NCBI GenBank assembly: GCA_944391695.1
Contig: CALXUO010000030.1
Coordinates: 5,100 to 69,099, forward strand
Length of the DNA stretch: 64,000 bases
From: an uncultured Alphaproteobacteria bacterium
GTDB lineage: Bacteria > Pseudomonadota > Alphaproteobacteria > RF32 > CAG-239
Direction: 5' to 3'
The notes under the pieces were generated by a model. It had not been told where the DNA came from. It saw nothing but the letters and a program-made list of their open reading frames with translations, and searched no databases. Positions 1,984 through 53,557 of this stretch are shown here, piece after piece. The first letter of the stretch is position 1; every line of letters begins with the position of its first letter. A program made the position numbers and the translations under genes.

Positions 1984-3378
1984 ATGAATAATATAAAAAG
2001 TGTTTCGCCGGAGTTTGTTGCCGACATTGCGACTAATATTTTGGTCGAAGTAGCAAAATCAGGAAAAATTTTGTTTTTTAACACTAAGGCTGCTTGTGTG
2101 TTTGCTAATATACGCAAGCCTGGAGTGTATTTGAAAAATGTAGTGGTGGATGATGATTTTAGAGTGTTGATGCAAAATATTGATACTGCTTTGTATCAGC
2201 AATATCCGCATCATTTTTACTGGATGCAGAAAGAAAGATTTTATTTGGTTTATGTTTATCCCAAAGATGACAGCGTATGGTTGGTGATGGAAGATATTAC
2301 CGAAAAACGAAGGCAGGCGCATTTGCTTTATTTGAGCTCTCAGAGGATGATGTTTGCCGAAAGAATTGCCAAATTGGGATATTGGGAATTGGATATTGCC
2401 TTGAAAAGGTTTTATTGGTCGGATGAAATGTATAGAATTTTCGGCATTAAGGATAAAAGCAAAACTTATCATCGTAATCTGATACGAGAGTTGTTGCATC
2501 CGGATGATTTGGGAATGTATAAGCAAAAACTTAAGGAACTTATTGGGACGCACAGAGATATTAAAGGTGATGCAAGAATTGTAACCTATGAAGGAGAGCT
2601 TAAGTATTGTCGCTTTATGGCCGGAATTATTTATGAAAGCGGTGAACCTAAGATAGCCGGAGCTTTTCAAGATATTAGCGATTTAATCAAGGCTCAGCAT
2701 CAATTGATTGACGCCAAAAAAGCAGCTGATGAGGCTAATTTGGCTAAGTCATATTTTTTGGCGCAGGCAAGCCATGATATCAGACAGCCTTTGCAGGCAA
2801 TGGATTTGTTTATTGAGGGTTTGAAAAATGCTCCGGTTGAAAAATATCCGGAATTGGCTGATAAACTGAGCGTCCTTAGCCGGAATCTGACTGGGTTGGT
2901 AAATAATTTTTTGGATGTGTCTAAGCTTGATTCTGGAGGTATGGTTTTTGAAGTGCAAAATTTTGATTTGGGCGGACTGGTCGCAAGAATTTGTGACGAA
3001 TATAAAGAAATGGCCGCGGAAAAGCAAATAATTTTGAGTTATAGAGTTGAAAATGTGATTATAAATCAGGATGTTTTTTTGGTTGAGCGTATCTTGCGTA
3101 ATTTACTGAGCAATGCTTTGAAATATGCCAAAACTAAAATAAGAGTTGGCAATACAAAAAATGGCTTTTGGGTTGTTGATGATGGAGATGGTATAGATAA
3201 AAACAAGCAAAAACACATATTTAAAGCTTTTTATCAATGCAACACTTTAAGTGATAGAAGGCGTGGCGGTGCCGGATTGGGGCTTAATATTGTGGAAAAA
3301 ATTGCCGAGGTAATTGGTGCTAAAATAAGGCTTAGATCAAAACTTAAGTGTTATAGCGCGTTTGAGGTGCGGATATAA
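1984..3378 (+). CDS. cytoplasmic PAS-domain sensor histidine kinase
   Basis: H-box 'AQASHDIRQPL'. ATPase G-boxes 'DDGDGID' and 'GGAGLGLNIVEKI'. PAS-like region around 'ERIAKLGYWELD'. No TM segment. No response regulator adjacent. Confidence 0.8.
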   Translation: MNNIKSVSPEFVADIATNILVEVAKSGKILFFNTKAACVFANIRKPGVYLKNVVVDDDFRVLMQNIDTALYQQYPHHFYWMQKERFYLVYVYPKDDSVWLVMEDITEKRRQAHLLYLSSQRMMFAERIAKLGYWELDIALKRFYWSDEMYRIFGIKDKSKTYHRNLIRELLHPDDLGMYKQKLKELIGTHRDIKGDARIVTYEGELKYCRFMAGIIYESGEPKIAGAFQDISDLIKAQHQLIDAKKAADEANLAKSYFLAQASHDIRQPLQAMDLFIEGLKNAPVEKYPELADKLSVLSRNLTGLVNNFLDVSKLDSGGMVFEVQNFDLGGLVARICDEYKEMAAEKQIILSYRVENVIINQDVFLVERILRNLLSNALKYAKTKIRVGNTKNGFWVVDDGDGIDKNKQKHIFKAFYQCNTLSDRRRGGAGLGLNIVEKIAEVIGAKIRLRSKLKCYSAFEVRI

Positions 3379-3451: not shown

Positions 3452-5215
3452 ATGTTTGAAGATATTAAAGAAAAAATCGTTAATTCGCAGATGTGCCGCA
3501 ATTATAAAAAAATGTGGAAATATGTTAAGCCATATTGGGGAAGGGCCGTATTGGCTTTGGTGATTACAATTCCAATCGGCGCTATGGATGCGGTTATTGC
3601 TTGGGCGTTAAAACCTTACATGGATATTGTTATGATTGAAAAAGGAAGCAATTATACGGCTTATATTCCGCTTTTGATTATATTATTTACTTTGATACAA
3701 AGTGTTTTTAATTACTCGGCAACTTATCTCAATACTTGGGTTGGACAAAAGGTTTCGATGGGACTTAAGGTGGATTTGTTTAAAAAATTGTTGCATTATG
3801 ATGCGGCTTTTTTTGATAGCCGTAATTCGGGAGAAATTGTTTATCGGTTTAATAATGATGTGGATATGAGCTGTAATGGTTTGTTGGCTAATCTTAAGCT
3901 CTTTACCACAAGATTGTTTTCTTCGATATCTTTGATTGTGGTATTGTTTTATAATTCTTGGCAATTGGCAATAGTGGCAGTCGTGGTGCTGGGAGCGGCA
4001 TTGTATCCGCTTACGACAGTTAAGAAAAGAATTAAAACGGTAATGGATAAATCGGTCTTTTCCGGTTCGGCTGTGGTTACCCATTTTAATGAAACTTTTA
4101 GCGGAAATAGAATAATCAGCTCTTATAATCTGTATGACTATCAGGAAAAAAGATTTAGCGATACTTTACGGCAATGTTTTAAGCTGGGAATTAAGATGAC
4201 ACAGCGTACGGGTATTTTATCGCCGATGATGCATTTTATTGTGTCGGTTGGTATTGCCGCGGTTATTTGGCTGGGAAGTTACCTGATTGTTACACACGAA
4301 ATTACTCCGGGTAATTTTGTATCGTTTATTGCAGCACTTATTATGCTTTATACACCGATTAAGGCTATCGGAAATAATTTTAATGCGGTGCAGATGGCTT
4401 TGATGGCTATGGATAGAGTTTTTTCGTTGTTGGACGGAATGCCTGCCATAAGATCTAAAGAAAATGCCATTGTGCTTAAAGGAATAAACAAGGGAATAGA
4501 ATACAAAAATGTTTGTTTTGAGTATGAAAAAAATAAACCGGTATTAAAAAATATAAATCTTAAGATTGCAAAAGGAGAAACTATTGCGTTTGTCGGTAAT
4601 TCGGGCGGCGGAAAAACAACCATGGTTAACTTGCTGCCAAGATTTTATGACGTAACATCGGGAGAGCTGTTGATAGACGGGATAAATGTTAAAGATTTGG
4701 ATTTGGATTCTTTGCGGGATAAAATTGCAATAGTTTTTCAAGATAATTTTTTATTTGCAGGAACAATCAGAGATAATATTTTGCTTGGGAATGAGAACGC
4801 AACCGAAGAGGAAATAAAAGAAGCCGTAAAGGATGCTTGTTTGGAAGAATTTGTCAAGGGATTGAAGCAAGGACTGGATACGCCAATAGGAGAGCGAGGA
4901 GCTTTACTTTCTGGCGGGCAAAAACAGCGTATTGCCATTGCCAGGGCGTTTTTGAAGAATGCTCCAATAGTTATTTTGGATGAGGCGACATCGGCTTTGG
5001 ACAATAAATCTGAGGCTGTGGTGCAGCAAGCTGTTGACAATTTGATGAAAGACAGAACCGTGTTTATTATTGCACACAGGCTGTCAACGGTTAGAAATGC
5101 CGATAAAATCGTGGTGATAAACTATGGTGAATTGGTTGAAAGCGGAACGCATGACGAGTTGCTTAAAAAAGAAAATTCGATTTATGCATCGCTGTATCAA
5201 TCGCAACTTAAATAG
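3452..5215 (+). CDS. ABC exporter, fused permease-ATPase (MsbA / lipid A-multidrug export family)
   Basis: Six-TM N-terminal domain. Walker A 'GNSGGGKTT', signature 'LSGGQKQRIAIARA', Walker B 'VILDEATSALD'. Start chosen at the first in-frame ATG (3452); alternatives at 3491 and 3512. Confidence 0.85.
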   Translation: MFEDIKEKIVNSQMCRNYKKMWKYVKPYWGRAVLALVITIPIGAMDAVIAWALKPYMDIVMIEKGSNYTAYIPLLIILFTLIQSVFNYSATYLNTWVGQKVSMGLKVDLFKKLLHYDAAFFDSRNSGEIVYRFNNDVDMSCNGLLANLKLFTTRLFSSISLIVVLFYNSWQLAIVAVVVLGAALYPLTTVKKRIKTVMDKSVFSGSAVVTHFNETFSGNRIISSYNLYDYQEKRFSDTLRQCFKLGIKMTQRTGILSPMMHFIVSVGIAAVIWLGSYLIVTHEITPGNFVSFIAALIMLYTPIKAIGNNFNAVQMALMAMDRVFSLLDGMPAIRSKENAIVLKGINKGIEYKNVCFEYEKNKPVLKNINLKIAKGETIAFVGNSGGGKTTMVNLLPRFYDVTSGELLIDGINVKDLDLDSLRDKIAIVFQDNFLFAGTIRDNILLGNENATEEEIKEAVKDACLEEFVKGLKQGLDTPIGERGALLSGGQKQRIAIARAFLKNAPIVILDEATSALDNKSEAVVQQAVDNLMKDRTVFIIAHRLSTVRNADKIVVINYGELVESGTHDELLKKENSIYASLYQSQLK

Positions 5216-5223
5216 CTTAAAAA

Positions 5224-5258
5224 ATAAGGTTTGTCGGGTGAGGATAAACCTTATTTTA
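5224..5258 (+). terminator. possible rho-independent terminator after the ABC exporter
   Basis: 9-bp stem ataaggttt/aaaccttat with a long 13-nt loop, followed by TTTT. Weak. Confidence 0.35.
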
Positions 5259-5315
5259 ATAATTTGATGATAAAATTTTTAAACTGTGGAGAATTTTTAT
5301 GAAAGGTCGCAAATA

Positions 5316-7910
5316 ATGGCAAATAAGGAAATTAAAACACCTAAGGATTTGGAAAACCTGATTAAAAAAGTGAAAGAGGCGCAGAGGCGCTTTGCAACTT
5401 TTGATCAGGAAACGGTAAATAAAATTTTTAAGGCGGCGGCGACTGCTGCCGACAAGGAGCGAATCCCGCTGGCCAAGATGGCGGTTGAAGATACCGGAAT
5501 GGGAGTGGTGGAAGATAAAATTATTAAAAACCATTTTGCCTCAGAGTATATCTATAATAAATACAAAAATGATAAAACCTGCGGTATTATCAAATCGGAC
5601 AAAACAAACGGCGTTAAAATAGTGGCTGAGCCGTTGGGTGTTATGGCCGGAGTGGTGCCGACAACCAATCCTACATCAACAGCAATTTTTAAGGCACTTA
5701 TTTGTTTGAAAACTCGTAACGCTATTATATTTTCGCCGCACCCGAGGGCTAAAAAGTCGACAATTGAAGCGGCTAAAGTTGTTTATGAGGCGGCAGTTAA
5801 AGCCGGTGCACCGGAAAATATTATTGCCTGGATTGATGAACCATCGATTGAGCTAACGGATATTTTGATGACGCATCCTTTAGTTGACGGGATTTTGGCA
5901 ACCGGCGGGCCGGGGATGGTTAAGGCTGCTTATTCATCTGGAAAACCGGCGCTTGGAGTAGGGGCTGGTAATGTGCCGGCAATTATTGATGAGACGGCTG
6001 ATGTCGAGATGGCGGTTTCTTATATTTTGATGTCGAAAACCTTTGATAACGGAATGATTTGTGCTTCGGAACAATCGGTTATTGCGCTGAAGCAAGTTTA
6101 TGAAAAAGTTAAGAAAGAGTTTGTTTTGCGCGGAGCGCACTTGCTGGCTCCAAAAGAGGCTGAAAAGTTATCCAAAATTATTTTGACGCCCAAAGGCGTT
6201 AATCCGGAGATTGTTGGGCAGCCGGCGGTTAAGATTGCTAAAATGGCAGGAATTAACGTGGCTGATCATACTAAAATATTGTTGGCCGAACAAAAAGTCA
6301 TAGATGTGGCTAATCCGTATGCTCATGAAAAATTGTCGCCGATTTTGACACTTTATCAGGCAGATGATTTTGAAACGGCGGTTGACAAGGCTTTGCATTT
6401 GGTAGAGCTTGGCGGTATGGGGCATACTTCGGTTTTGTATACCGATACCAGAAAGCAAGACAGAGTTGATTATTTTGCCAAAAAGCTGCCGACCGGAAGG
6501 TTGCTGGTTAATTCGCCTTCATCGCAGGGAGGAATCGGCGATTTGTTTAACTTTAGATTGGAGCCGTCGTTGACATTGGGTTGTGGCTCGTGGGGTGGAA
6601 ACTCCGTTAGTGAAAATGTTGGGGTTAAGCATTTGTTGAATTATAAAACCGTTGCCGAGAGGAGAGAAAATATGTTGTGGTTTAGAGTACCGCCAAAAAT
6701 TTATTTTAAACGCGGAGCAACGGATTTTGCTTTGCGCGAGTTGGAAGGCAAAAAAAGAGCCTTTATTGTTACTGACAGGTATTTGTTTGATTCGGGTATG
6801 GTTAGCGCCATTACCAATGTTTTGGAAGAAATGGATATTGAGTATCAGATTTTCTTTGATGTGAAACCTGATCCTACAATATCTACCATTGAGGAAGCTT
6901 TGGTGATGATTAATGTGTTTAAGCCGGATGTTTTTATATCTTTTGGCGGCGGTTCGCCGATGGATGCGGCCAAAATTATGTGGCTTAAATATGAAAGGCC
7001 GGATTTGGAATTTGAAGATGTGGCTATGCGTTTTATGGATATCAGAAAACGTATTTGCGCTATCGGCGAATTGGGCAAAAAAGCTATGATGGTTGCTATT
7101 CCGACAACATCGGGTACCGGTTCTGAGGTTACGCCGTTTGCGGTCATTACCGATGATGTAAGTCATGTAAAATATGCTATTGCCGACTATGCTTTGACAC
7201 CTAATATGGCAATTGTTGATGCCAACTTTGTGGATAATATGCCAAAAGGCCTGACTTCGGCCGGCGGTATTGACGCCCTGGTTCATGCTTTGGAAGCCTA
7301 TGTTTCGGTTATGGCGACAAACTTTACCAACTCGGCGGCTTTGGAGGCGGCTAAGCAGGTGTTCCGATATCTGCCGCGAGCCTATAAAAACGGCGCCGAT
7401 GATCCGAAAGCCAGAGAGAAAATGCATCATGCGGCAACAATCGCCGGTATGGCTTTTGCCAATGCCTTTTTGGGTCTGTGTCACTCCATGGCGCATAAAC
7501 TCGGGGCCGCATTTAATATTCCGCACGGAATTGCCAATGCGTTGTTGATTTGTCAAATTATCAAATATAACGCAACTGATTGTCCGCGCAAGCAGGCGAT
7601 ATTCCCGCAATATAAAGTGCCGGAAGCTAAAAAACGCTATGCGCAGATTGCCAACAACCTAAAGCTTAAGGGCAGAACCGATGATGAAAAGGTTGCTGCT
7701 TTGATTGAGGCTATTGCCGAATTGAAAAAAGAAATTGAAATTCCGGCATCGATTAAAGAATGGGGCATATCGAAAAAAGATTTTGAAGCCAAGCTTGATT
7801 GGTTGGTTGAGAATGCTTTTGACGATCAGTGCACGGGAGCAAATCCGGTATATCCTTTGATGGAAGATATCAGGAAAATTTATATGGATGCCTTTGAAGG
7901 AAAAATATAA
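5316..7910 (+). CDS. adhE: bifunctional acetaldehyde-CoA / alcohol dehydrogenase
   Basis: N-terminal aldehyde dehydrogenase and C-terminal Fe-ADH domains ('GGGSPMDAAK'), 865 aa. N-terminus 'MANKEIKTPKDLENLIKKVKEAQRRFA' matches typical AdhE. RBS 'aaagg' upstream of ATG 5316; the GTG at 5286 is a caller artifact. Confidence 0.95.
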   Translation: MANKEIKTPKDLENLIKKVKEAQRRFATFDQETVNKIFKAAATAADKERIPLAKMAVEDTGMGVVEDKIIKNHFASEYIYNKYKNDKTCGIIKSDKTNGVKIVAEPLGVMAGVVPTTNPTSTAIFKALICLKTRNAIIFSPHPRAKKSTIEAAKVVYEAAVKAGAPENIIAWIDEPSIELTDILMTHPLVDGILATGGPGMVKAAYSSGKPALGVGAGNVPAIIDETADVEMAVSYILMSKTFDNGMICASEQSVIALKQVYEKVKKEFVLRGAHLLAPKEAEKLSKIILTPKGVNPEIVGQPAVKIAKMAGINVADHTKILLAEQKVIDVANPYAHEKLSPILTLYQADDFETAVDKALHLVELGGMGHTSVLYTDTRKQDRVDYFAKKLPTGRLLVNSPSSQGGIGDLFNFRLEPSLTLGCGSWGGNSVSENVGVKHLLNYKTVAERRENMLWFRVPPKIYFKRGATDFALRELEGKKRAFIVTDRYLFDSGMVSAITNVLEEMDIEYQIFFDVKPDPTISTIEEALVMINVFKPDVFISFGGGSPMDAAKIMWLKYERPDLEFEDVAMRFMDIRKRICAIGELGKKAMMVAIPTTSGTGSEVTPFAVITDDVSHVKYAIADYALTPNMAIVDANFVDNMPKGLTSAGGIDALVHALEAYVSVMATNFTNSAALEAAKQVFRYLPRAYKNGADDPKAREKMHHAATIAGMAFANAFLGLCHSMAHKLGAAFNIPHGIANALLICQIIKYNATDCPRKQAIFPQYKVPEAKKRYAQIANNLKLKGRTDDEKVAALIEAIAELKKEIEIPASIKEWGISKKDFEAKLDWLVENAFDDQCTGANPVYPLMEDIRKIYMDAFEGKI

Positions 7911-7952
7911 ATTGGTATAAATCAACCCCTTTGGTGGTAAAGGAGGCGCTTG

Positions 7953-8195
7953 ATGCCCAAAAAGATACAGATTTGTATGGGAAGTTCGTGTTTTGCACGT
8001 GGCAATAACAAAAATTTGGATGCCATTATGCGTTATATTAAAGATAACGGATTGGAGGCAGAAGTGGAAATTTCCGGATTGCGGTGTTGCAATCAGTGTG
8101 CAAACGGGCCGAATATTGCTATTGAAGGGGTTGAGTATCATAATGTTGATACCGGAACAATAATTGATATTTTGGATAAGACTTTTAAGGAGTAG
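7953..8195 (+). CDS. thioredoxin-like [2Fe-2S] ferredoxin (NuoE/HydC-type small protein)
   Basis: C-x4-C ... C-x3-C pattern ('CMGSSC' ... 'CCNQC'). Perfect RBS AGGAGG 6 nt before ATG 7953. Confidence 0.6.
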   Translation: MPKKIQICMGSSCFARGNNKNLDAIMRYIKDNGLEAEVEISGLRCCNQCANGPNIAIEGVEYHNVDTGTIIDILDKTFKE

Positions 8196-8200
8196 GACTG

Positions 8201-9958
8201 ATGTCTAGCCGCGAGCATCCGTTGTTTACAATTAAGAACGATTGCCAAGACTGTTATAAATGTGTGCGAGAGTGCCCGGTTAAGGCAATTAAGATTGAAG
8301 ATAATTCGGCGCAAATCGTGCCGGAATTGTGTGTGGCTTGCGGTAAATGCTACAAGGTTTGTCCGGTTAGGGCCAAACAAGATCGAGATGATGTTCCTCG
8401 GGCCAAAAATATGTTACAATCTGGTGAAAAAGTTTATGTATCGTTGGCGCCGTCGTGGGTGGCTGAATTTGAAAATGTTACCAAAGAGCAACTGTTGACG
8501 GCAATTAAGGCTTTGGGGTTTGCAGGGGTTAGTGAAACAGCTCTCGGAGCAGAAGAGGTTTCAGCTCATGTGGTAAGGTTTTTATCAAAGCAGAAAAAAG
8601 GATTGTTTCTGTCAACTGCTTGTCCGGCATTTGTTGAATACATTAATAAATATATGCCTGATTTGAGCGCTAATCTGACGCCAGTGCTTTCTCCGGTGTT
8701 GTCGCATTGTAAATTAATGCGAAAGAAATTGGGAGACGATATTAAAATAGTATTTGTGGGACCTTGCATTGCCAAAAAATTTGAGGCTGACAGAAATGCC
8801 GATTTGTTGAATTTGAGTATATCTTTTAGAGATTTGCGGCGCTGGTTTAGAGAAAAAGGAATTGATTATCATAATATAACCCCAGAAAAAGGAATTGATT
8901 TTGTTTATAAAAGAGCAGAAGAGGGGCGCTATTATCCGATTGAGGGGGGAATGATTGAAACAATTCGTCCTTATGGCGGAATGGATCATGTTTATATGAT
9001 GCAATTGACTGGGCTAGAAAACATTCAACGCGAGCTTGAAACAATAAGAGGAAATATACCTGAAAAGCCGGTGTTTATGGAATGTTTGGCTTGTGAGGGA
9101 GGATGTGTTAACGGGCCTTGCACCAGAAAACTTAAGTCTGGATTTGAAAAAAGAACCAAAATATTGGAGGATGCGAAGGTTTCGGAAAAAACCGGAAAAC
9201 GTAAGCCTGAGGTTGATATAGATAAAGAATATGCCCAAAATCCGGTGGAAAATCATACATATACCGAAGAGCAAATTAAGAGAGTTCTTAATATGCTTGG
9301 TAAATATACTTTGGAAGATGAGATTAACTGCAATGCCTGTGGGTATGATAATTGTCGTAATTTTGCCAAAGCTATTTTGGATGGCAAGGCTGAAATTGAT
9401 ATGTGCGTATCGCATATTAAACAGCAGGCGCAGCGCAAGGCCAATGCTTTGTTGAAATGTATTCCTTCACCGATTGTGATTGTTAATTCCAAGTTGTCAA
9501 TAATGGAATATAATGATTATTTCGTTAAAGAGTTTTGGAATGATGAAGAACATGGTGATATCTATGATAAAAACAATTTGATCGGGGCAAATTTGAGAGA
9601 TTTTATCGGTTTTACCAATTTGTTTTCCGCCTCGCTTGATTTGGGAGAAGATGTTAAAAGAGAAAATGCAAAACATCAGGGAAAAGTTTATGATGTGATG
9701 GTGTTTAATATTGAACAAAAGCAAGTAGTCGGCGGTGTTATTCAAGATGTGACCAATGTGGAAATAAAACGTGAGAAAATTGCCGAAAAGGCCAAAGAGG
9801 TTATAGAGAAAAACTTGGCAACGGTGCAACAAATTGCTTGTACTTTGGGTGAGCATATGGCAGAAACCGAGGTCTTGTTGCGATCAATTGCCAAAGATTA
9901 TGCCGCGGACGATTATGACAAGCCCAATATCACAATTCGCAATAAGAGGGATGAATAG
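8201..9958 (+). CDS. hydS: putative H2-sensing [FeFe]-hydrogenase with C-terminal PAS domain (HydS/HfsB-like, group C)
   Basis: Two N-terminal 4Fe-4S ferredoxin motifs (CxxCxxCxxxCP). H-cluster motifs are present but degenerate: L1 'TACP' instead of TSCCP, L2 'GPCIAKKFE', L3 'MECLACEGGCVNGP'. C-terminal ~180 aa is PAS-like. RBS AAGGAG. Confidence 0.8.
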   Translation: MSSREHPLFTIKNDCQDCYKCVRECPVKAIKIEDNSAQIVPELCVACGKCYKVCPVRAKQDRDDVPRAKNMLQSGEKVYVSLAPSWVAEFENVTKEQLLTAIKALGFAGVSETALGAEEVSAHVVRFLSKQKKGLFLSTACPAFVEYINKYMPDLSANLTPVLSPVLSHCKLMRKKLGDDIKIVFVGPCIAKKFEADRNADLLNLSISFRDLRRWFREKGIDYHNITPEKGIDFVYKRAEEGRYYPIEGGMIETIRPYGGMDHVYMMQLTGLENIQRELETIRGNIPEKPVFMECLACEGGCVNGPCTRKLKSGFEKRTKILEDAKVSEKTGKRKPEVDIDKEYAQNPVENHTYTEEQIKRVLNMLGKYTLEDEINCNACGYDNCRNFAKAILDGKAEIDMCVSHIKQQAQRKANALLKCIPSPIVIVNSKLSIMEYNDYFVKEFWNDEEHGDIYDKNNLIGANLRDFIGFTNLFSASLDLGEDVKRENAKHQGKVYDVMVFNIEQKQVVGGVIQDVTNVEIKREKIAEKAKEVIEKNLATVQQIACTLGEHMAETEVLLRSIAKDYAADDYDKPNITIRNKRDE

Positions 9959-9961
9959 TTA

Positions 9962-11137
9962 ATGAGTGATTCCTTGTTTATTGAGATTGGTTCACACCAG
10001 GAACACAAAGCAACGGAGAGTTGTTTCGGTGATGCCATAGCTTCGGAAAAATTGCCAGAGGAGCAGAGAATTATTTCGGTGCTGTCGGATGGGTTGGGCA
10101 GCGGAGTTAAGGCTAATATATTGTCTTCCATGACAACAAGAATGGCTTTGAAATTTGTCGAAAGCGATTTGGATTTGGTGCGCTCAGCCGAGGTGATGAT
10201 GCAGGCGTTGCCGGTGTGTCAGATAAGAAAAATAAGTTATGCCACATTCTCAATTATTGACGCAACGCTTGAGGGTAAGACACGTATTTATGAGATGGAT
10301 AATCCGCAATGTTTTGTGGTACGCAATTTTGAGCAATATCATCCTTCGCACCATGAAATATCTTCGGATAACTGGAAAGACAGAGTGATAAATATTTATC
10401 AGTTTGTGGCTAAAGAAGAAGACAGAATTATTATAATGTCGGACGGAGTTACGCAGGCTGGACTTGGTAATCCTAAATATCCTTTGGGGTGGCAACGTGA
10501 AGGTGTTTGGAAATTTATTGAAAATCAAGTCAGACGTCATCCTCATATTTCTGCTAAAGATTTGGCTGAGACTATCGTGCATGAAGCCTTGGATAAAGAA
10601 CCGGAAGGAAAAGCCGGTGATGATATCAGCTGTACGGTGGTTTATTTTAGAAAGCCCAGAAAGCTTTTGCTTTTGAGCGGGCCGCCGTTTGATGAAGAAA
10701 AAGACCATGAAATTGCCGAAATGATTGATTATTATGATGGTAAAACCGCAATTTGCGGCGGAACTACCGCTAATATTATTGAGCGCGAGCTTTGTTTGAA
10801 ATGTGAAATGGATAAGACGACATTTGATCCCAATATTCCGATGGCATCGATTATGCCCGGTATTGATTTGGTAACAGAAGGTATTTTGACATTGACCGAA
10901 GTGTACCGTATGCTAAAAGAAGGAATCGATGAGGACAAGGATAATGCGGCTACCAGATTGGCAAAGCTTTTGCTTGATTCTGATAAAATAGATTTTGTTA
11001 TCGGTACCAAAATCAATGAAGCGCATCAGGATCCTAATTTGCCGATGGAGCTTGACATTCGCCGAAATATTGTTAAAAAGATTTTTAGGCTTTTGCAGAG
11101 CAAATACTTAAAAGAAATAAGTGTTAAGTACGTTTAA
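9962..11137 (+). CDS. PP2C-family serine phosphatase (SpoIIE/RsbU-like)
   Basis: 'VLSDGLGSGVKA' and 'MSDGVTQAG' metal-binding motifs of PPM phosphatases. Sits immediately after hydS, as in hfs-type clusters. Confidence 0.7.
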   Translation: MSDSLFIEIGSHQEHKATESCFGDAIASEKLPEEQRIISVLSDGLGSGVKANILSSMTTRMALKFVESDLDLVRSAEVMMQALPVCQIRKISYATFSIIDATLEGKTRIYEMDNPQCFVVRNFEQYHPSHHEISSDNWKDRVINIYQFVAKEEDRIIIMSDGVTQAGLGNPKYPLGWQREGVWKFIENQVRRHPHISAKDLAETIVHEALDKEPEGKAGDDISCTVVYFRKPRKLLLLSGPPFDEEKDHEIAEMIDYYDGKTAICGGTTANIIERELCLKCEMDKTTFDPNIPMASIMPGIDLVTEGILTLTEVYRMLKEGIDEDKDNAATRLAKLLLDSDKIDFVIGTKINEAHQDPNLPMELDIRRNIVKKIFRLLQSKYLKEISVKYV

Positions 11138-11159
11138 TTGAGAAAAAAGGATAAAGCAC

Positions 11160-11435
11160 ATGGAAAAAATACAAGTTAAACTTTGTGCCGGGACAGCCTG
11201 TTTTGTTATGGGAGCTCCGCAAATACAGGCTTTGGAGTTTGCCGCACCTTCCGATATTGCCGATAAAATAGAGGTGAAAGAAGTTAGGTGTATGAATCAT
11301 TGCAGCCAAGGTCAAGGTTATAACAAAGGGCCGTTTGTGGAGATTAACGGTGAAGTTATACAAGAGGCTACCTTGGAAAAAGTGGTTGCCAGAGTTAGAG
11401 AATTGATTGCCAAAGAGGAAGAAAAATCGTGTTAA
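11160..11435 (+). CDS. thioredoxin-like [2Fe-2S] ferredoxin (second copy)
   Basis: 'CAGTAC' ... 'CMNHC' gives the C-x4-C ... C-x3-C pattern. Overlaps the hydA start, suggesting translational coupling. Confidence 0.6.
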   Translation: MEKIQVKLCAGTACFVMGAPQIQALEFAAPSDIADKIEVKEVRCMNHCSQGQGYNKGPFVEINGEVIQEATLEKVVARVRELIAKEEEKSC

Positions 11436-12880
11436 TACCCAAAAATTATGCCAACCAAATGCGTAGCAGAATTCTGGTTAAAGTGGTTGAAAGCTTTTAT
11501 AAAGACAGATTTGAAACGGCCGATGAGATACCTATAGAAATGCGCCCGAAAGATTATGATTCCAGCAGGTGCTGCATTTATAAAGACAGGGCCATCTTAA
11601 AATACAGAATGATGGCGGCGATGGGCTTTACGCCGCAAGATGAAACAAACGAGGCAAAGCAGCTTAAAGATTATGGCAAAGAGGCGTTAAAAAGACAAAA
11701 TCATGCCAAAAGTTGTTTGGCGGTGATTGATATTGCTTGCTCGGCTTGTGTCAAATCGCAATATATGGTTACCGATGCGTGCCGGGGGTGTTTTGCCAGA
11801 CCTTGTGTGATGAATTGCCCTAAACAGGCGATTTCGATTGTTCATGGGCGTTCACACATTGACCCTGGTCTTTGTGTGTCGTGCGGAAAATGCATGGAAG
11901 TTTGTCCGTATCATGCAATTGTTAAGCTGCCGGTGCCGTGCGAGGAGGCTTGTCCGGTGGGGGCTATCAGAAAAGACGAGTTTGGGGTTGAGCATATTAA
12001 CGAGGATACCTGTATCTCTTGCGGCAAATGTTTGCAGTCTTGCCCATTTGGCGCAATTGTTGAACGCTCGCAATTGGTTGATGTCTTAAACCTTATTCAT
12101 AACAGTGATAAAAAGGTGGTGGCTATGTTGGCACCGGCGATTGTGGGACAGTTTCCGTTTGAAATCGGTCAGGTTGTCGGGGCTTTGAAAAAGGCTGGCT
12201 TTGACGATGTTATCGAGGTGGCGGCCGGGGCAGATGTTACATCTAAAAATGAGGCTGCCGAATTTATTGAAAGAATGAAAGAAGGCAAGAATTTTATGAC
12301 AACCTCTTGTTGTCCGGCTTATTACAGAGCTGCCAAGGTACATATTCCGGAGTTGGCGCCGTTTGTTTCTAACACCAAAACACCAATGTATTATGCTGCA
12401 GAAATGCTTAAAAAAGAGCAACCTGACAGTGTATCGGTATTTGTTGGTCCTTGTTTGGCCAAGAGAACCGAGGCGGAATATGATCCTAATGTTGATTATG
12501 TTTTGACCTTTGAAGAAATAGGTGCGATGTTTGTTGGTGCCGGAATTGAAATCGGCGATTGTGAAGCTCAAGAATTTGCCAAAGTATCGTCAGCTCAAGG
12601 GCGAAACTATCCGCTTTCGGGCGGAGTAGCCGGAGCGGTTGGTAATTTGGTGGACGGCAAGGTCGATTTTAGGCCGGAAAGAATTGACGGATTGAGCAAA
12701 GAAAATATGAAGTTGCTTAAGAAATACGCTACCAAAGGCTCAGAGAACAATATGATTGAAGTTATGTGTTGTGAGGGCGGATGTGTGGCAGGGCCTGGTT
12801 GTATTGCTTTGGCCAAAAAGGCAGCACGGCAAATTGAAACCTATGTTGCTCAAGGTACTAACCAAAAAGACATGAAATAG
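11429..12880 (+). CDS. hydA: [FeFe]-hydrogenase catalytic subunit with ferredoxin-like 4Fe-4S domains
   Basis: Canonical H-cluster motifs: L1 'TTSCCPAYY', L2 'VGPCLAKRTE', L3 'MCCEGGCVAGPGC'. Three CxxCxxCxxxCP clusters. Unusual N-terminal extension with a 'SSRCCIYKD' motif. Start is GTG at 11429 or ATG at 11459. Confidence 0.85.
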   Translation: MLIPKNYANQMRSRILVKVVESFYKDRFETADEIPIEMRPKDYDSSRCCIYKDRAILKYRMMAAMGFTPQDETNEAKQLKDYGKEALKRQNHAKSCLAVIDIACSACVKSQYMVTDACRGCFARPCVMNCPKQAISIVHGRSHIDPGLCVSCGKCMEVCPYHAIVKLPVPCEEACPVGAIRKDEFGVEHINEDTCISCGKCLQSCPFGAIVERSQLVDVLNLIHNSDKKVVAMLAPAIVGQFPFEIGQVVGALKKAGFDDVIEVAAGADVTSKNEAAEFIERMKEGKNFMTTSCCPAYYRAAKVHIPELAPFVSNTKTPMYYAAEMLKKEQPDSVSVFVGPCLAKRTEAEYDPNVDYVLTFEEIGAMFVGAGIEIGDCEAQEFAKVSSAQGRNYPLSGGVAGAVGNLVDGKVDFRPERIDGLSKENMKLLKKYATKGSENNMIEVMCCEGGCVAGPGCIALAKKAARQIETYVAQGTNQKDMK

Positions 12881-12884
12881 AAGA

Positions 12885-12918
12885 AAAATCCCTTTGAGTG
12901 ATTCAAAGGGATTTTTTT
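12885..12918. terminator. bidirectional rho-independent terminator (hydA / proS convergent)
   Basis: 13-bp perfect stem aaaatccctttga / tcaaagggatttt, loop gtgat, then TTTTTTT. Confidence 0.75.
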
Positions 12919-12960
12919 CATGATTAAATTTAAGCCCCGATGATTTCGGTGCTTTAGAGT

Positions 12961-14478
12961 TTAGTAGCATCTGGCGTAGATTACATCCATGGTTGCAGGT
13001 TTGCCAGTTAAAAGACACTCGCCGGTAGTTTCGCTTTGGTCAAAGGGCAGGCAACGGATGGTGATTTTCATCTGTTTTAAGATTTCTTCCGTTTCCGGAT
13101 CACCGCACCATTTGCCGCGCACAAAAGCAACTTTGCCCTTTTTGCCGTCTTCAATCCATTCGTTGGCATTGGCAAAATAGTCGGCAAAAGCTTGTTTGGT
13201 GGTGATATCGGTGCGGATGTTGTCATCCAAGCGCTTTTTGGCTCGTGCAAACATCTCGTTTTGAATATTTTCAAGATATTTAGTTGCTTGGGCAACAAAA
13301 TCTGATTTGGCGATGACTTGTTTGCCTTGAGGCGTATTGATATAGATACGTTGTTTTAACATCAGGTTATTGCCGTCTACATCGCGTTTGCCAATCTCTA
13401 AAATTATCGGAGCGCCTTTTTTGGTCCATTCCCAGAATTTATCGACAGATGGCTTGTCGCGTTTGTCAAGTTTAATGCGGATTTTTTCGCCAAAAGGAGT
13501 TTGCTTCATTAAATCTGCTTGCAGGCCCTTGATATAGGCCATAACTGCATCGGTATCATCGGCATTTTTAATTACCGGAATAATCACAATTTGATAAGGC
13601 GCAATCTTGGGCGGAGTTACCATACCTTCGTCATCGGCATGGGTCATAATCAAGCCGCCGATTAAGCGAGTTGATACGCCCCAAGAAGTGGTGTAGGCAA
13701 ATTCTTGTTGATTGTTTTTGTTGACAAACGAAATATTGGCCGCCTTGGCAAAATTTTGCCCTAAGAAATGCGAGGTTCCGGCTTGCAGGGCTTTGCCGTC
13801 TTGCATCATGGCTTCAACACAGTAGGTGTCTACGGCACCGGGAAATTTGTCGTATTCAGGTTTGCGACCGCATATTACCGGCATAGCCAAAGTTTGTTCG
13901 CAAAGCTCTTTATAAGCTTCAAGCATGGTAGTAGTTTCCTCTAAAGCCTCCTCGGCTGAGGCGTGTGCTGTATGTCCTTCTTGCCATAAAAATTCGCGAG
14001 TGCGCAAAAACAGGCGAGGGCGCATCTCCCATCTTACCACATTGGCCCATTGGTTGACCAATACAGGCAAATCGCGATAGGATTTGACCCATTTGGAAAA
14101 AGAATCGGCAATAATGGCCTCGGATGTCGGGCGGACAATCAAAGGTTCTTCCAGTTTGGAAGAAGGGGTAAGTTTGCCGTTTTCCATAGCAAGGCGCGAG
14201 TGCGTTACAACCGCCATTTCTTTGGCAAATCCCTCAACATGCTCAGCTTCTTTTTGGAAGAAAGAAAGCGGAATAAACATTGGAAAATAGCAGTTTTCAT
14301 GGTCGGTAGATTTAATCTTTTCATCAAATACGTCGCGGATGCGCTCCCAGATACCATAGCCCCAAGGTTTTATGACCATGCAGCCGGGAGATGATGAGTT
14401 TTCGGCCATGTCAGATTCTGATACTACGGCTTGATACCATTCGGGATAATTGTCTTGGCGTAATTTTTTTAGTGTCAT
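12961..14478 (-). CDS. proS: prolyl-tRNA synthetase, eukaryote/archaeal-like type (no editing insertion, C-terminal Zn-binding domain)
   Basis: Class II motifs throughout. C-terminal '...IYARCY'. This ProRS type is typical of alphaproteobacteria. Confidence 0.95.
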   Translation of the reverse strand: MTLKKLRQDNYPEWYQAVVSESDMAENSSSPGCMVIKPWGYGIWERIRDVFDEKIKSTDHENCYFPMFIPLSFFQKEAEHVEGFAKEMAVVTHSRLAMENGKLTPSSKLEEPLIVRPTSEAIIADSFSKWVKSYRDLPVLVNQWANVVRWEMRPRLFLRTREFLWQEGHTAHASAEEALEETTTMLEAYKELCEQTLAMPVICGRKPEYDKFPGAVDTYCVEAMMQDGKALQAGTSHFLGQNFAKAANISFVNKNNQQEFAYTTSWGVSTRLIGGLIMTHADDEGMVTPPKIAPYQIVIIPVIKNADDTDAVMAYIKGLQADLMKQTPFGEKIRIKLDKRDKPSVDKFWEWTKKGAPIILEIGKRDVDGNNLMLKQRIYINTPQGKQVIAKSDFVAQATKYLENIQNEMFARAKKRLDDNIRTDITTKQAFADYFANANEWIEDGKKGKVAFVRGKWCGDPETEEILKQMKITIRCLPFDQSETTGECLLTGKPATMDVIYARCY

Positions 14479-15011: not shown

Positions 15012-15551
15012 TTAGAACTGCTCTTGCAATTCAAAAAAGTATGCTTGCGGATGATCGCAAACCGGGCATTTTTCCGGTGCAGAAGGAGCTTCTACACGGT
15101 GGCCACAGTTGGCGCACTCCCATATAACTTTGGTTGGACGATTGAATATGGTGCCTTCTTCCAAAGATTTGAGCAGAGCTTGATAACGCTCCTCATGGCC
15201 TTTCTCTATCTTGCCTACCATCTCAAAAAGAGCGGCAATTTTGGTGAAGCCTTCTTCTTTGGCTTCTTTGGCCATGCGGGCATACATATCGGTCCACTCG
15301 TAGTTCTCACCGGCGGCAGCATCTTTTAAGTTGGCCATGGTGGAAGGAACTTCGCCGCCGTGAAGAAGCTTGAACCAAATTTTGGCATGTTCTTTTTCAT
15401 TATTGGCGGTTTGTTCAAATTTGTCTGCTATGATGTTATAGCCTTCTTTTTTGGCTTTGGAGGCATAATAGGTATATTTGTTGCGGGCTTGAGATTCGCC
15501 GGCAAATGCTTCCATTAAGTTCTTTTCGGTTTTAGAGCCTTTGAGTTCCAT
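15012..15551 (-). CDS. rbr: rubrerythrin
   Basis: Ferritin-like diiron domain (ExxH motifs) plus C-terminal rubredoxin-like 'CANCGH...CPVCDH'. Confidence 0.9.
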
Positions 15552-15569
15552 CGTTTTCTCCTTTAGTTG

Positions 15570-15959
15570 TTATAAGTTTTGGTTTAATCGGAGGCAGTCA
15601 GGGCAGATTCCTTTTAAGGATATGTCTGCACTTTCTACTGCCAGACCTGTTTGATCTGTAATCTGCTGGATAAAAGACGGAAGAATGTTGCTGTCAATGT
15701 CTATTATGCGAGAGCAGGAAGTACAGATAAAATGGTAGTGCTTGACCAAAGTATGGTCAAAGCGGGCAACCTTGTCAATATGAGAAAGTTTGCGTATCAT
15801 GCCGTTTTCGGCTAGTCGATTTAGGTTGCGGTATACGGTTGCCAAGCTGATGTTGTCGTCTTTTTGACGCACAAGTGCAAAAATCTGTTCTGCCGTCGGG
15901 TGGCAGGGATTTTGCCTCAGAGTGTCTAGAATTAGAGAACGTTGCTTGGAATATTTCAA
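15570..15959 (-). CDS. perR: Fur-family metalloregulator, PerR-like (peroxide stress)
   Basis: Fur fold with 'HHF' and 'CTSCSRI' Zn site. Directly upstream of rbr and divergent from the FDP gene. Apparent TTG start, with no in-frame ATG upstream. Confidence 0.7.
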   Translation of the reverse strand: MKYSKQRSLILDTLRQNPCHPTAEQIFALVRQKDDNISLATVYRNLNRLAENGMIRKLSHIDKVARFDHTLVKHYHFICTSCSRIIDIDSNILPSFIQQITDQTGLAVESADISLKGICPDCLRLNQNL

Positions 15960-15985
15960 ATTTTTACCTTGTGTATAAAATTAAG

Positions 15986-15998
15986 AATGATTATCATT
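15986..15998. promoter_or_regulatory. Fur/PerR-box-like palindrome AATGATtATCATT in the perR / FDP divergent promoter
   Basis: One mismatch from the core of the E. coli Fur box (AATGATAATCATT). Lies 27 nt upstream of the perR start. Confidence 0.45.
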
Positions 15999-16080
15999 TT
16001 TAATAAAATTATTTTATCTTGTCAATCAAAATAAAAAGCTTATCTTATAGTCATATGTAAATTTTTAAGGAGAAATGCGA

Positions 16081-17259
16081 ATGAAAGCCGTTGAGATAAA
16101 AAAAGATATATTTTGGGTGGGTGCTAAAGATTGGAATTTGAGAGAATTCCACGGGTATAACACGCCGGATGGATCAACCTACAATAGTTATTTGATTATG
16201 GATGACAAGATTACTTTGGTTGACGGAGTTAAGGCTTATATGAGCAATGAGCAGATTGCAAGAGTTAAATCCGTAATCGATTTTTCTAAAATAAATTATC
16301 TAATCGTTAATCATGTGGAGCAAGACCATTCGGGAAGTGTGCCGGAGATTATGAAATTGGCTCCGCAGGCGATAATTGTTACCAATGCCGCGGGTAAAAT
16401 GGCTTTGGAGGCGCATTTTGACACGACAGGCTGGCAATATCATATTGTTAAGACCGGCGATGTGCTTAATATCGGCAAACGTAACTTGAGTTTCTTGACA
16501 ACGCCGATGCTGCATTGGCCGGATTCAATGATGACCTATGTGGCAGAGGATAAACTATTGTTGCCCAATGACGGATTTGGTCAACACTTGTGCTGTGAGG
16601 CTTTGATGGTTAGGGATTATCCTAATGATTTGGTAGTTAAAGCAGCCAAAAGTTATTATGCCAATATTTTGTTTCCCTATGGTATGCAGGCCGAAAAAGC
16701 TTTGTCTTCGGCAGCCGAGATGAAGCTTGATATTGATATGATTGCGCCATCGCACGGGCTTATTTGGTCGGGCAAAGATGAGGTTAATCAAATTTTGTCG
16801 CTTTATGCCGATTGGGCCAAAGGCAAAACGGTTAAAAAAGCAGTGATAGCTTATGATACGATGTGGGGGGCAACCGCAAAATTGGCCGAGGCGGCCATGG
16901 CCGAATTTCAGGATGAAGGAATCGAGGTGGTTAAGCACAATTTGGGGGTCAGCCATATCTCTGATGTTATGACCGATATCTTGGATGCCGAATATGTTTT
17001 GGTCGGGACACCAACACTTAATAATCAAATCTTTCCTCGGGTGGCGGCGTTTTTGACCTATATGAAAGGCCTTGCGCCCAAGGGAAAGAAAGGACTGGCT
17101 TTTGGTTCCTACGGCTGGCGGCCGGGGGTTGTTAAAGAGGTCAAACAAGTGATGGATGATCTCGGTTGGCAGACGGCAGAAGTTTTTGAAGAAAAGTATA
17201 CGCCGAAGTCTGATATTTTGAATCAGTTTGCGGAAAAAGTTAAAGCTTTTATCGGATAA
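16081..17259 (+). CDS. flavodiiron protein (A-type FDP; O2/NO reductase, metallo-beta-lactamase plus flavodoxin domains)
   Basis: 'HxExDH' diiron motif ('NHVEQDHSG') and a C-terminal flavodoxin-like domain. RBS AAGGAG spaced correctly for ATG 16081. Confidence 0.85.
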   Translation: MKAVEIKKDIFWVGAKDWNLREFHGYNTPDGSTYNSYLIMDDKITLVDGVKAYMSNEQIARVKSVIDFSKINYLIVNHVEQDHSGSVPEIMKLAPQAIIVTNAAGKMALEAHFDTTGWQYHIVKTGDVLNIGKRNLSFLTTPMLHWPDSMMTYVAEDKLLLPNDGFGQHLCCEALMVRDYPNDLVVKAAKSYYANILFPYGMQAEKALSSAAEMKLDIDMIAPSHGLIWSGKDEVNQILSLYADWAKGKTVKKAVIAYDTMWGATAKLAEAAMAEFQDEGIEVVKHNLGVSHISDVMTDILDAEYVLVGTPTLNNQIFPRVAAFLTYMKGLAPKGKKGLAFGSYGWRPGVVKEVKQVMDDLGWQTAEVFEEKYTPKSDILNQFAEKVKAFIG

Positions 17260-21528: not shown

Positions 21529-21654
21529 ATTCCTTGTGGATAAAGTATTGTCGTAAGCTGATTGTATTTCCAATTTAAAAAAATATGCTTATAATGCTCT
21601 CTGAAGTCCGTTGATTTGGACTTTGGGGAATATTTGTTATGGGGAATTGACCAG

Positions 21655-31230: not shown

Positions 31231-32262
31231 TTATTTGAGGTTGATGCCTTTTTGTTTGCAGCGGTTGTTCCATTTTAGTTTGGCATAAACCTGCATATCG
31301 GTAATGGTGTCGGTTTCGTCGACAATTTCTTTGCCGATAATGGTCTCTATAATGTCTTCCAAGGTTATGATGCCAATCCAATTGCCAAGCTGATCAACAA
31401 CCAAAGCCATGTGGTTGTGGTCTTCCAACATTGCCGAAAGAACATCTTGAAGCCGTGCCTCGGGAGAAAATGAACGCATGTCGCGGGCAAATTTGTCAAC
31501 TTTGTCTTCTTCTTTGGCTTTGTAAGTGCTTGATTTGTGGATGTAGCCTTTGAATATTTGCTTTTTCTCATCAATAATCGGAAAACGAGAAAAAGGCGTT
31601 GATGATAAAAATTTGGCAAAATCTTTTATCTTGGTTCCTGGTTTTATGGTATGAACAACCGTGCGTGGCGTCATGACATCTTTTACATCAAGCTGGCGCA
31701 AGTTAATAGTATTTATGACGACACGATATTCAATATCGTCAACAACTTTGGCCGCTTGTCCCATTTTGGCCAGAGCTTTAATTTCTTCTTTAATATTTGA
31801 ACAGTCAGTATCAGTTGTAAACCATCTGGTAATTAACGCTGATAGCCAAATAAACGGTTTCATTACCCAAATAATGATATTAAGCGAGGGAACCATAATC
31901 GGTACCAGAGCTTTCCAATATTTGGCACCAATCGATTTGGGCAAAATCTCCGAAGTGGTGAGAATTAAAAATGTCATGATACCACTGGCCCAGCCAACAT
32001 ATGCCTGACCATAAATTTCTGCAACTTGAGCACCTACACCGGTCGCACCGACGGTGTGGGCAATGGTGTTTAGAGAAAGAATGGCGGCTAAAGGCTCATC
32101 AATGTGTTCTTTCATATATGATAATTTTTTAAAAAGTGCGGGATTTTTGTCTTCAAGTTGGGCAACATAGCTCGGAACAATCGATAAAAGTGCGGCTTCT
32201 AACACAGAACATATAAATGAAACCGCAATTGCCATAATGGCAAAAACCAATAAAATAAACAT
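31231..32262 (-). CDS. CNNM/HlyC-CorC family transporter (DUF21 plus CBS pair)
   Basis: Four N-terminal TM helices followed by tandem CBS domains. RBS AAGGA. Confidence 0.8.
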   Translation of the reverse strand: MFILLVFAIMAIAVSFICSVLEAALLSIVPSYVAQLEDKNPALFKKLSYMKEHIDEPLAAILSLNTIAHTVGATGVGAQVAEIYGQAYVGWASGIMTFLILTTSEILPKSIGAKYWKALVPIMVPSLNIIIWVMKPFIWLSALITRWFTTDTDCSNIKEEIKALAKMGQAAKVVDDIEYRVVINTINLRQLDVKDVMTPRTVVHTIKPGTKIKDFAKFLSSTPFSRFPIIDEKKQIFKGYIHKSSTYKAKEEDKVDKFARDMRSFSPEARLQDVLSAMLEDHNHMALVVDQLGNWIGIITLEDIIETIIGKEIVDETDTITDMQVYAKLKWNNRCKQKGINLK

Positions 32263-32431
32263 TTTTTCCTTATTTGTTGTTAACGACTATTTGTTAATAA
32301 CATCTTTTTTTATAAAAATAAAGTATAATTATAGTTTTATTTACTATTTTTGTGCGGGGAGGAGATGTTATTTGTCGTTGTGGCAATTATATAAAAACCA
32401 GAAAATTATAATATTGAAGCGAGAGAAGGGG

Positions 32432-53555: not shown

Positions 53556-53557
53556 GG

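Follow-up and report, generated by a model that had tools for sequence, protein, structure and literature searches.

A putative sensory [FeFe]-hydrogenase of Group C in a phosphatase-linked hydrogenase cassette of uncultured gut Alphaproteobacteria

Gene content of the locus

The gene hydS (8201–9958, + strand) encodes a 585-residue protein that we assign to the Group C (M2f-type) putative sensory [FeFe]-hydrogenases. It lies in a stretch of 64,000 nucleotides (nt) from an uncultured Alphaproteobacteria bacterium (assembly GCA_944391695.1, contig CALXUO010000030.1, positions 5,100 to 69,099), hereafter called the window, to which all coordinates refer. The protein matches the Pfam families Fer4 (twice), Fe_hyd_lg_C and FeS (PF04060). 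Its gene stands in a row with genes for two small [2Fe-2S] ferredoxins, a SpoIIE/PP2C-family phosphatase, a second [FeFe]-hydrogenase (HydA) and a bifunctional aldehyde/alcohol dehydrogenase (AdhE). An earlier note on this DNA had drawn attention to the motif TACP in HydS, describing it as a degenerate form of the H-cluster motif TSCCP and taking the lost cysteine as support for a sensing role. Our analysis places HydS as a new example of a well-described hydrogenase family, of which the alanine is the normal state.

The H-cluster of HydS

The codons at 8612–8632 read TCA ACT GCT TGT CCG GCA TTT in the hydS frame and encode S138-T-A140-C141-P-A-F144. They form the core of motif L1 (LSTACPAFV, residues 137–145, nt 8609–8635). 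To relate these residues to Clostridium pasteurianum hydrogenase I (CpI), correspondences were taken from alignments of HydS with PDB chains by phmmer. Here A140 falls at CpI Cys299, the proton relay cysteine, and C141 at Cys300, a ligand of the [4Fe-4S]H cluster. The top-scoring CpI chain was the engineered C299A variant 6GLY, which reads 'FTSACPGW' at this site. The alignments thus bear out the reading of TACP as the L1 motif with alanine in place of the relay cysteine. Its homology to L1 is direct, and since the position falls within a domain matched at E = 4e-46 (Pfam Fe_hyd_lg_C, residues 76–306), chance is not an issue. The entire protein lacks any 'CC' or 'CCP', so that no canonical TSCCP is hidden elsewhere. 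The motif strings quoted for HydS and HydA in the earlier note are all present in the respective genes.

Motif L2 (GPCIAKKFE, residues 187–195, nt 8759–8785) was located by alignment to PDB hydrogenases, and motif L3 (MECLACEGGCVNGP, residues 293–306, nt 9077–9118) aligns with CpI FIEVMACHGGCVNGG. The H-cluster ligands of HydS are C141 (CpI C300), C189 (C355), C298 (C499) and C302 (C503), while K192 and E195 correspond to CpI K358 and E361. With all four cysteine ligands and the equivalents of Lys358 and Glu361 in place, HydS can be predicted to bind a complete H-cluster. The second sphere is altered, with G187 at M353, F185 at T351, L296 at M497 and Y245 at F417. Comparison of the proton-transfer residues with CpI, a check the earlier note had proposed, revealed changes at every position: besides the alanine at C299, HydS carries V120 at E279, H123 at E282, F127 at R286 and T160 at S319. 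The Group A proton pathway is missing from HydS entirely and not just at its first residue.

Conservation of the alanine

To place these substitutions in their family context, we counted residues in the 150 best representatives of 50%-identity clusters, which are 30–50% identical to HydS. The equivalent of position 299 is Ala in 116 of them, Cys in 13 and Ser in 10. Of 150 relatives, 136 have Phe at the T351 position, 135 have Gly at M353, and 113 have Leu and 12 Met at M497; in the family set of 151 sequences, Gly at M353 is counted in 136 and Leu at M497 in 114. The four H-cluster cysteines show no variation, or almost none, across 86–150 relatives, and the missing proton relay is likewise a family-wide pattern.

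Among alphaproteobacterial orthologues of HydS the alanine is found in 27 out of 27, encoded by all four codons (GCT, GCA, GCC and GCG). The dN values of hydS are 0.10–0.16 with dS >1.5, giving an omega of roughly 0.03–0.07, which is a rough indicator as dS is saturated and some values are undefined. These figures point to strong purifying selection on hydS, and STACP reads as the selected consensus of the HydS family. The description of the motif as degenerate is accordingly one we do not retain.

Published counts for Group C put position 299 at ~43% Ala, 17% Cys and ~10% each of Pro and Ser (PMC10055695), and the Ala majority in our family set agrees with them. Cys299 is absent from Groups C and D, being A131 in TmHydS and A137 in TamHydS (PMC8163306, PMC10407848, PMC10055695). 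Alanine at this position is therefore the documented majority state of sensory [FeFe]-hydrogenases, and the motif alone brings nothing new. Five of nine Bacteroidales relatives whose genes lie in the same phosphatase cassette carry a cysteine instead (ISSCCP; loci L029, L031, L033, L035 and L036 of the scan described below). E279 and R286 are nonetheless absent from Cys-bearing relatives. In the rest of the Bacteroidales set the site, which lies ~390–420 nt into hydS, encodes Ala (L028, L037, L038) or Ser (L030).

Domain architecture of HydS

Two N-terminal [4Fe-4S] motifs (nt 8234–8374) are recognised by the Pfam families Fer4_7, Fer4 and Fer4_21 on residues 12–58. All eight of their cysteines are conserved in HydS and (nearly) invariant among its relatives. 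Behind the H-domain, a regular expression located a Cx2Cx4Cx16C motif (CNACGYDNCRNFAKAILDGKAEIDMC, residues 377–402, nt 9329–9406), which coincides with a match to PF04060 on residues 375–403 (E = 4.7e-10). Its cysteines C377, C380, C385 and C402 are invariant among relatives.

The earlier note had called HydS PAS-fused. In HydS itself such a domain is invisible to Pfam, with no PAS match at E < 0.01 and only PAS_9 at E = 0.13 for the C-terminal fragment. The domain (residues ~421–516, nt 9461–9748) is nevertheless substantiated by homologues and by predicted structure. Among 86 full-length relatives (31–47% identity), 50 match PAS_8 at E <= 1e-3 (best 8.7e-8), 15 match PAS_9 and 12 match PAS. 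An AlphaFold2 model of HydS built on the alignment of these 86 homologues has a mean predicted local distance difference test score (pLDDT) of 92, and solved [FeFe]-hydrogenases can be superposed on its first ~400 residues with E about 1e-20; this structure comparison met no Group C or Group D structure in the PDB. A separate model of residues 400–585 (pLDDT 92.5) begins with an N-cap helix, continues into a PAS core of five strands and ends in a C-terminal helix of 50 residues. When compared with the PDB using Foldseek, its top 50 matches were all PAS or LOV domains at a probability of 1.0, including YF1 (4gcz), Aer2 (3vol), FixL (8js5) and CitA (5fq1).

The long, J-alpha-like C-terminal helix was delimited by DSSP on the AlphaFold2 models (residues 518–568, nt 9752–9904). 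It contains the near-invariant residues Q543, I545, A546, L549, G550, E551 and L560. It aligns with the PAS-linker helix of YF1 (4gcz) across 181 columns. We presume that this helix is an output or docking element.

Family placement

As described by Land et al. (PMC8163306), Group C (M2f) enzymes combine two [4Fe-4S] clusters at the N-terminus with an H-domain, a Cx2Cx4Cx16C motif and a PAS domain, and do not conserve Cys299 or the relay. HydS shows every Group C sequence feature that we tested, namely the H-cluster cysteines, the N-terminal clusters, the Cx2Cx4Cx16C motif, the PAS domain and the absent Group A relay. Group D (M2e) enzymes such as TamHydS are without a PAS domain and carry Ser or Thr at M353 and Leu at M497; in TmHydS, the M353 position is Gly and the M497 position Ser (PMC8163306). 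The PAS domain and Gly187 at the M353 position are both at odds with Group D, which rules out membership of that group. HydDB divides Group C by the linked regulator, and its subgroup C3 is termed 'phosphatase-linked' (PMC5037454). Because a SpoIIE/PP2C gene begins 4 nt downstream of hydS, HydS is by context a presumptive C3-type enzyme, of the HydS/HfsB family.

The H-domain of HydS scores 193.6 bits on the B1 model TIGR04105 and 90.6 bits on the Group A model. Moreover, the Phe/Gly pair at T351 and M353 is common to HydS and the neighbouring Group B enzyme. At the level of sequence, this suggests that Group B is a closer relative of the sensor than Group A.

The phosphatase

The gene that follows hydS (9962–11137, +) encodes a SpoIIE/PP2C-family Ser/Thr phosphatase of 391 amino acids, the equivalent of HfsC. 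It was identified by Pfam (SpoIIE, E = 7e-10) and by alignment to SpoIIE in the PDB. The catalytic domain spans residues ~5–227, and its metal-binding motifs GD, SDG, SDG and GDD are all present. It is followed by a C-terminal domain of 165 amino acids (residues 228–391, nt 10643–11134, +), which has 44 invariant columns across Alphaproteobacteria and Bacteroidales and contains the motifs CGGTTA, DLVTEGILT and GTKINxAHQDPNLPxELEIRRN. This domain has no Pfam match at E <= 1, and a 13-sequence profile yielded no match in the PDB (best E = 1.6). A database search returned about 2075 homologues, mostly fragments, which carry no Pfam annotation in this region.

The neighbouring hydrogenase

It has recently been reported that H2 production in the human gut is driven mainly by Group B 'colonic-type' hydrogenases. 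HydA (11429–12880, +, 483 amino acids) is a monomeric [FeFe]-hydrogenase of this group (B1/B3-type) and the equivalent of HfsD/HydA2. Its motifs are TSCCPAYY (nt 12302–12325), GPCLAKRTE (nt 12446–12472) and, as L3, MCCEGGCVAGPGC (nt 12764–12802). On TIGR04105, the profile for B1-type monomeric [FeFe]-hydrogenases, HydA scores 542.7 bits against a cutoff of 450, with residues 6–459 covering profile positions 3–459 of 462. On the Group A model TIGR02512 it reaches 156.5 bits, far below the cutoff of 405.95. Together, these two results rule out a Group A identity. Likewise, HydA lacks the Group A motifs MPC and MxCxxGC...GGGQP, having GPC in L2 and MCCEGGCVAGPGC in L3.

When aligned with the Group A HydA1 (8a6t), HydA keeps the equivalents of C299, E279, E282, R286 and S319, so that its relay is intact. 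It differs in having L2 as VFVGPC, with F338 at T351 and G340 at M353, and APA for APS, with A237 at S232. The Phe/Gly pair and the S232A exchange have been described for the Group B enzyme CpIII (PMC12138974), and TsHfsD, the positional equivalent of HydA, has also been called Group B (PMC8924675). The earlier characterisation of HydA as canonical thus holds for L1 and for the proton relay, but not for L2, L3 or its class, which is Group B and not Group A.

Operon structure and distribution

In addition to hydS, the phosphatase gene and hydA, the cassette contains two genes for thioredoxin-like [2Fe-2S] ferredoxins. The first (7950–8195, +, 81 amino acids) takes the position of hfsA and matches PF01257 at E = 6.9e-8, with Cx4C...Cx3C ligands. 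The second (11160–11435, +, 91 amino acids) matches the same family at E = 1.6e-6. The GTG start of hydA overlaps this second gene by 7 nt (11429–11435), which suggests that the two may be translationally coupled. The gene adhE (5286–7910, +; Pfam Aldedh, Fe-ADH and ADH_Fe_C) precedes the cassette by 40 nt on the same strand, its true start being likely the ATG at 5316. All six genes, in the order adhE, [2Fe-2S], hydS, PP2C, [2Fe-2S] and hydA, are co-oriented and separated by gaps of at most 40 nt or by overlaps. Between hydA and the convergent proS lies a hairpin of 14 pairs with A/T-rich flanks of A- and T-runs (12884–12916), probably a bidirectional terminator that closes the operon. This hairpin is the exception in scans of 5100–13100 for promoters and terminators, which otherwise gave numbers at chance level (22 sites against 18.5 expected, and 9 against 7.8) and pointed to no boundary within the operon. 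Control by Rex was considered and rejected: TTGTGAAN4TTCACAA with up to three mismatches gave 5 matches against 6.6 expected, none of them near adhE or hydS.

A scan for related loci, using one genome per species, found 38. Of these, 27 come from metagenome-assembled genomes (MAGs) of gut or rumen Alphaproteobacteria, whose submitters labelled them Alphaproteobacteria, 'Azospirillum sp.' or Rhodospirillales, and are 58–99% identical. The order [2Fe-2S]-hydS-PP2C-[2Fe-2S]-hydA is complete in the alphaproteobacterial loci wherever the contig reaches far enough, and adhE lies directly upstream of the cassette in all loci of at least 79% HydS identity with enough upstream sequence. In the Bacteroidales loci (38–47% identity), a [2Fe-2S] gene precedes hydS and a PP2C gene follows it wherever the contig extends, and six also contain hydA. 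Overall, a PP2C gene comes next in every locus that extends past hydS, and the same is true of the [2Fe-2S] gene upstream. In L033 (11461–14016) and L036 (6663–9218), both from MAGs of Bacteroidales/Lentimicrobiaceae, adhE sits between the second [2Fe-2S] gene and hydA. Its product is 61–62% identical to AdhE of the window. As adhE lies inside the cassette in these two loci, its linkage is found again in a second phylum, where the genes are ordered differently. [FeFe]-hydrogenases and maturases were already known from gut 'Azospirillum sp. CAG' genomes (PMC4967309), and Group C genes have been counted earlier in human gut metagenomes (PMC12578642).

Other features of the window

Base composition revealed no GC anomaly that would flag the cassette as a recent island. 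The first 24,000 nt have an unusually strong GC skew, positive on the + strand, with values of 0.2–0.36 in most 2-kb windows at 36–44% GC, and the composition does not shift at the hydrogenase cassette. The stretch 52980–59313 (–) holds rnfB, C, D, G, E and A, which make up a complete Rnf operon, and after them a gene for an ApbE flavin transferase. The operon indicates ferredoxin:NAD+ energy conservation, consistent with a ferredoxin-dependent hydrogenase. At 15012–17259, genes for rubrerythrin (–), a Fur/PerR-family regulator (–) and a flavodiiron protein (ODP beta-lactamase fold and flavodoxin, +) make up an oxidative-stress set typical of strict anaerobes. The window further encodes a stand-alone iron-containing alcohol dehydrogenase, its second such enzyme (48326–49546, –), and a PAS-HisKA-HATPase histidine kinase (1984–3378, +), which lies upstream of the ABC exporter that precedes adhE. 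A 506-residue protein (62362–63882, –) contains a phage-lysozyme domain at residues 258–378. Several long open reading frames on the + strand have no Pfam family at E <= 1e-5: 21616–25830 (1404 amino acids), 36821–39652 (943), 32237–33634 (465) and 997–1971 (324).

Discussion

We consider it likely that HydS is a Group C putative H2-sensing [FeFe]-hydrogenase that acts through the PP2C phosphatase on HydA and AdhE, and thereby serves as a switch between H2 and ethanol. Low activity is reported for TmHydS and TamHydS (PMC8163306, PMC10055695, PMC10407848), and Leu at M497 severely lowers the activity of CpI (PMC10055695). By analogy with these characterised relatives, slow turnover would let the H-cluster of HydS track ambient H2 in its redox state. 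The architecture suggests that electrons from H2 could reach the C-terminal cluster, whose state would alter the PAS domain and helix and in this way modulate the SpoIIE/PP2C phosphatase. Because the HydS polypeptide ends at the helix, the signal would have to pass to a separate partner, most plausibly the phosphatase encoded downstream. The phosphatase, via a phospho-protein, might then set the expression or activity of the ferredoxin-dependent Group B HydA and of AdhE, so that H2 pressure would decide whether the cell uses H2 or ethanol as its electron sink. For these output steps we draw on the genetics of Thermoanaerobacterium and the transcriptomics of Ruminococcus albus. In Thermoanaerobacterium, strains that lack hfsA or hfsB express more adhE and yield more ethanol (PMC5707799, PMC11837493), and the hydA2-adhE-hydS-phosphatase cluster of R. 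albus, in which the partner of the sensory hydrogenase is a ferredoxin-only enzyme, is 111-fold down-regulated when a partner organism consumes H2 (PMC6776011).

How much of this rests on the alanine is a separate matter. The earlier note was right in direction when it took the loss of the cysteine as support for sensing, as the residue matches low-turnover putative sensors, but it placed too much weight on a single position. With Cys-bearing relatives in the same cassette, 17% Cys in Group C and no gain in activity of TmHydS upon the A131C exchange (PMC10055695, PMC10407848), alanine discriminates only weakly. Stronger evidence for a sensor comes from the loss of the whole relay, the M353G and M497L substitutions, the PAS domain and the neighbouring PP2C gene.

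Several observations weigh against a sensor of this kind. For every Group C enzyme, the literature still labels H2 sensing 'putative' (PMC8924675), and TmHydS and TamHydS keep measurable catalytic activity (PMC8163306). Cys-type sensors share the same cassette, so the alanine is not what makes HydS a sensor. Within the cassette, Pfam detected no Ser/Thr kinase, STAS protein or transcription factor, and Pfam annotation of the 64-kb window (about 40 open reading frames) did not reveal the maturase genes hydE, hydF or hydG. Finally, the host is known only from uncultured gut MAGs, and HydS from sequence and models.

It is also conceivable, though in our view unlikely, that HydS senses the redox state of the ferredoxin pool and not H2, with an H-cluster that only vents or buffers electrons. 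The N-terminal clusters would equilibrate with ferredoxin, while the PAS domain and C-terminal cluster would report the redox state. HydS does have a ferredoxin-like N-terminal domain of the same type as catalytic enzymes, the gene directly before hydS encodes a dedicated small [2Fe-2S] protein, and a metabolism centred on ferredoxin is evident from the Rnf operon of the window. A plain Fe-S sensor would, however, have no need of invariant H-cluster ligands or of an entire H-domain kept under purifying selection, and the response in R. albus follows the H2 level (PMC6776011). Neither model fully excludes the other, and they are partly compatible, as the H-cluster couples H2 to the redox state of the clusters.

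More improbable still is that HydS has no regulatory function and is instead one subunit, slow but truly catalytic or serving electron transfer, of an Hfs hydrogenase complex composed of the [2Fe-2S] protein, HydS and HydA. The genes are tightly packed, with short gaps and overlaps like those of a complex-encoding operon, and each hydrogenase gene is preceded by a [2Fe-2S] gene of its own. T. saccharolyticum produces less H2 when its entire hfs operon is deleted (PMC5707799), and the measurable activity of TmHydS and TamHydS (PMC8163306) would fit such a subunit as well. When hfsB alone was deleted, however, hydrogenase activity and ethanol yield both rose, contrary to what the loss of a catalytic subunit should bring (PMC5707799). 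Moreover, the PAS domain, the output helix and the adjacent phosphatase would have no role in a purely catalytic complex, and the proton relay is absent across the HydS family. That TACP marks a decaying pseudo-enzyme no longer binding the [2Fe] subcluster, as the word 'degenerate' and the replacement of C299, M353 and M497 (all important in Group A) might imply, is extremely improbable and effectively refuted by the conservation data, namely a dN/dS of about 0.03–0.07, an alanine held through four synonymous codons in 27 orthologues and cluster ligands invariant across 86–150 relatives, while TmHydS and TamHydS, which have the same substitutions, incorporate [2Fe]adt and are active (PMC8163306, PMC10055695).

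Returning to the H2-sensing switch, we tentatively raise the possibility, with more doubt than confidence, that the HydS-PP2C-Group B HydA cassette together with adhE is a horizontally shared H2-feedback switch of gut Alphaproteobacteria, Bacteroidales and Firmicutes, which signals via the C-terminal domain of the phosphatase. This domain might dock the output helix of HydS, or might act directly, at the post-translational level, on AdhE or HydA without a transcription factor. If true, a horizontally shared switch would control the 'colonic-type' Group B hydrogenase. Uncultured Alphaproteobacteria of gut and rumen, and also Bacteroidales, have kept the complete sensor-phosphatase-Group B-AdhE module of Ruminococcus and Thermoanaerobacterium, which adjoins a class of hydrogenases currently regarded as dominant in the H2 production of the gut. 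The natural series of Ala, Cys and Ser at position 299 in an otherwise identical cassette, along with the unannotated phosphatase domain, could clarify how Group C enzymes signal. What remains novel is the taxonomic spread of the module, this variant series and the phosphatase C-terminal domain.

Comparison with known systems

When comparing HydS with the engineered CpI variant C299A (6GLY) and with Group A in general, the H-domain fold and the cluster ligands are shared, and the engineered 'TSACP' mimics the natural 'STACP'. Whereas Cys299 is essential in Group A, where C299A is nearly inactive, HydS has its whole relay and second sphere remodelled, a state that is ancestral to the HydS family.

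TmHydS, TamHydS, HfsB and the R. albus HydS (RaHydS) were compared by their published residue identities and descriptions rather than by alignment. The Group C (M2f) enzyme TmHydS of Thermotoga maritima has the same domain order as HydS, with two [4Fe-4S] clusters, H-domain, Cx2Cx4Cx16C motif and PAS domain. The two proteins also agree at the positions of Cys299 (A131/A140), Met353 (G177/G187) and Phe417 (Y223/Y245; PMC8163306, PMC10055695), and both lack the Group A proton relay. They differ at the Met497 position, which is Ser (S267) in TmHydS and Leu in HydS, as in TamHydS and most of the HydS family. TamHydS of Thermoanaerobacter mathranii (Group D/M2e), which is of low turnover and putatively sensory, shares with HydS the Ala at Cys299, the Leu at Met497 and the C-terminal Cx2Cx4Cx16C motif. 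It has no PAS domain and carries the Group D Ser/Thr at Met353, whereas HydS has a PAS domain and Gly. The name 'TamHfsB', which the earlier note had proposed for alignment, conflates two proteins: TamHydS is the Group D enzyme without a PAS domain, and the PAS-bearing HfsB belongs to Thermoanaerobacterium.

The regulatory [NiFe]-hydrogenase HoxBC-HoxJ of Ralstonia eutropha is reminiscent of the proposed system by analogy only. It combines a slow hydrogenase, a PAS partner and a phospho-relay that controls hydrogenase expression. However, its metal site and fold are unrelated, and its output is a histidine kinase and not a PP2C phosphatase.

The overall arrangement of the cassette resembles that of hfsABCD of Thermoanaerobacterium saccharolyticum and of the R. 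albus 7 HydS locus, in which a small protein, a PAS-hydrogenase, a Ser/Thr phosphatase and a ferredoxin-dependent hydrogenase follow in like order (PMC5707799, PMC11837493, PMC6776011). Unlike these loci, the cassette of the window has a second [2Fe-2S] gene between the phosphatase gene and hydA. HfsA has been described as aligning poorly with known proteins, whereas its equivalent in the window is a clear thioredoxin-like [2Fe-2S] ferredoxin. The hosts are also distinct, being gut Alphaproteobacteria MAGs in one case and Firmicutes in the other. For the hfs-type operon of the window, the likeness covers gene order and the linkage to adhE. This linkage, functional or positional, is common to the window, Thermoanaerobacterium and R. 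albus, where adhE belongs to the same co-regulated cluster.

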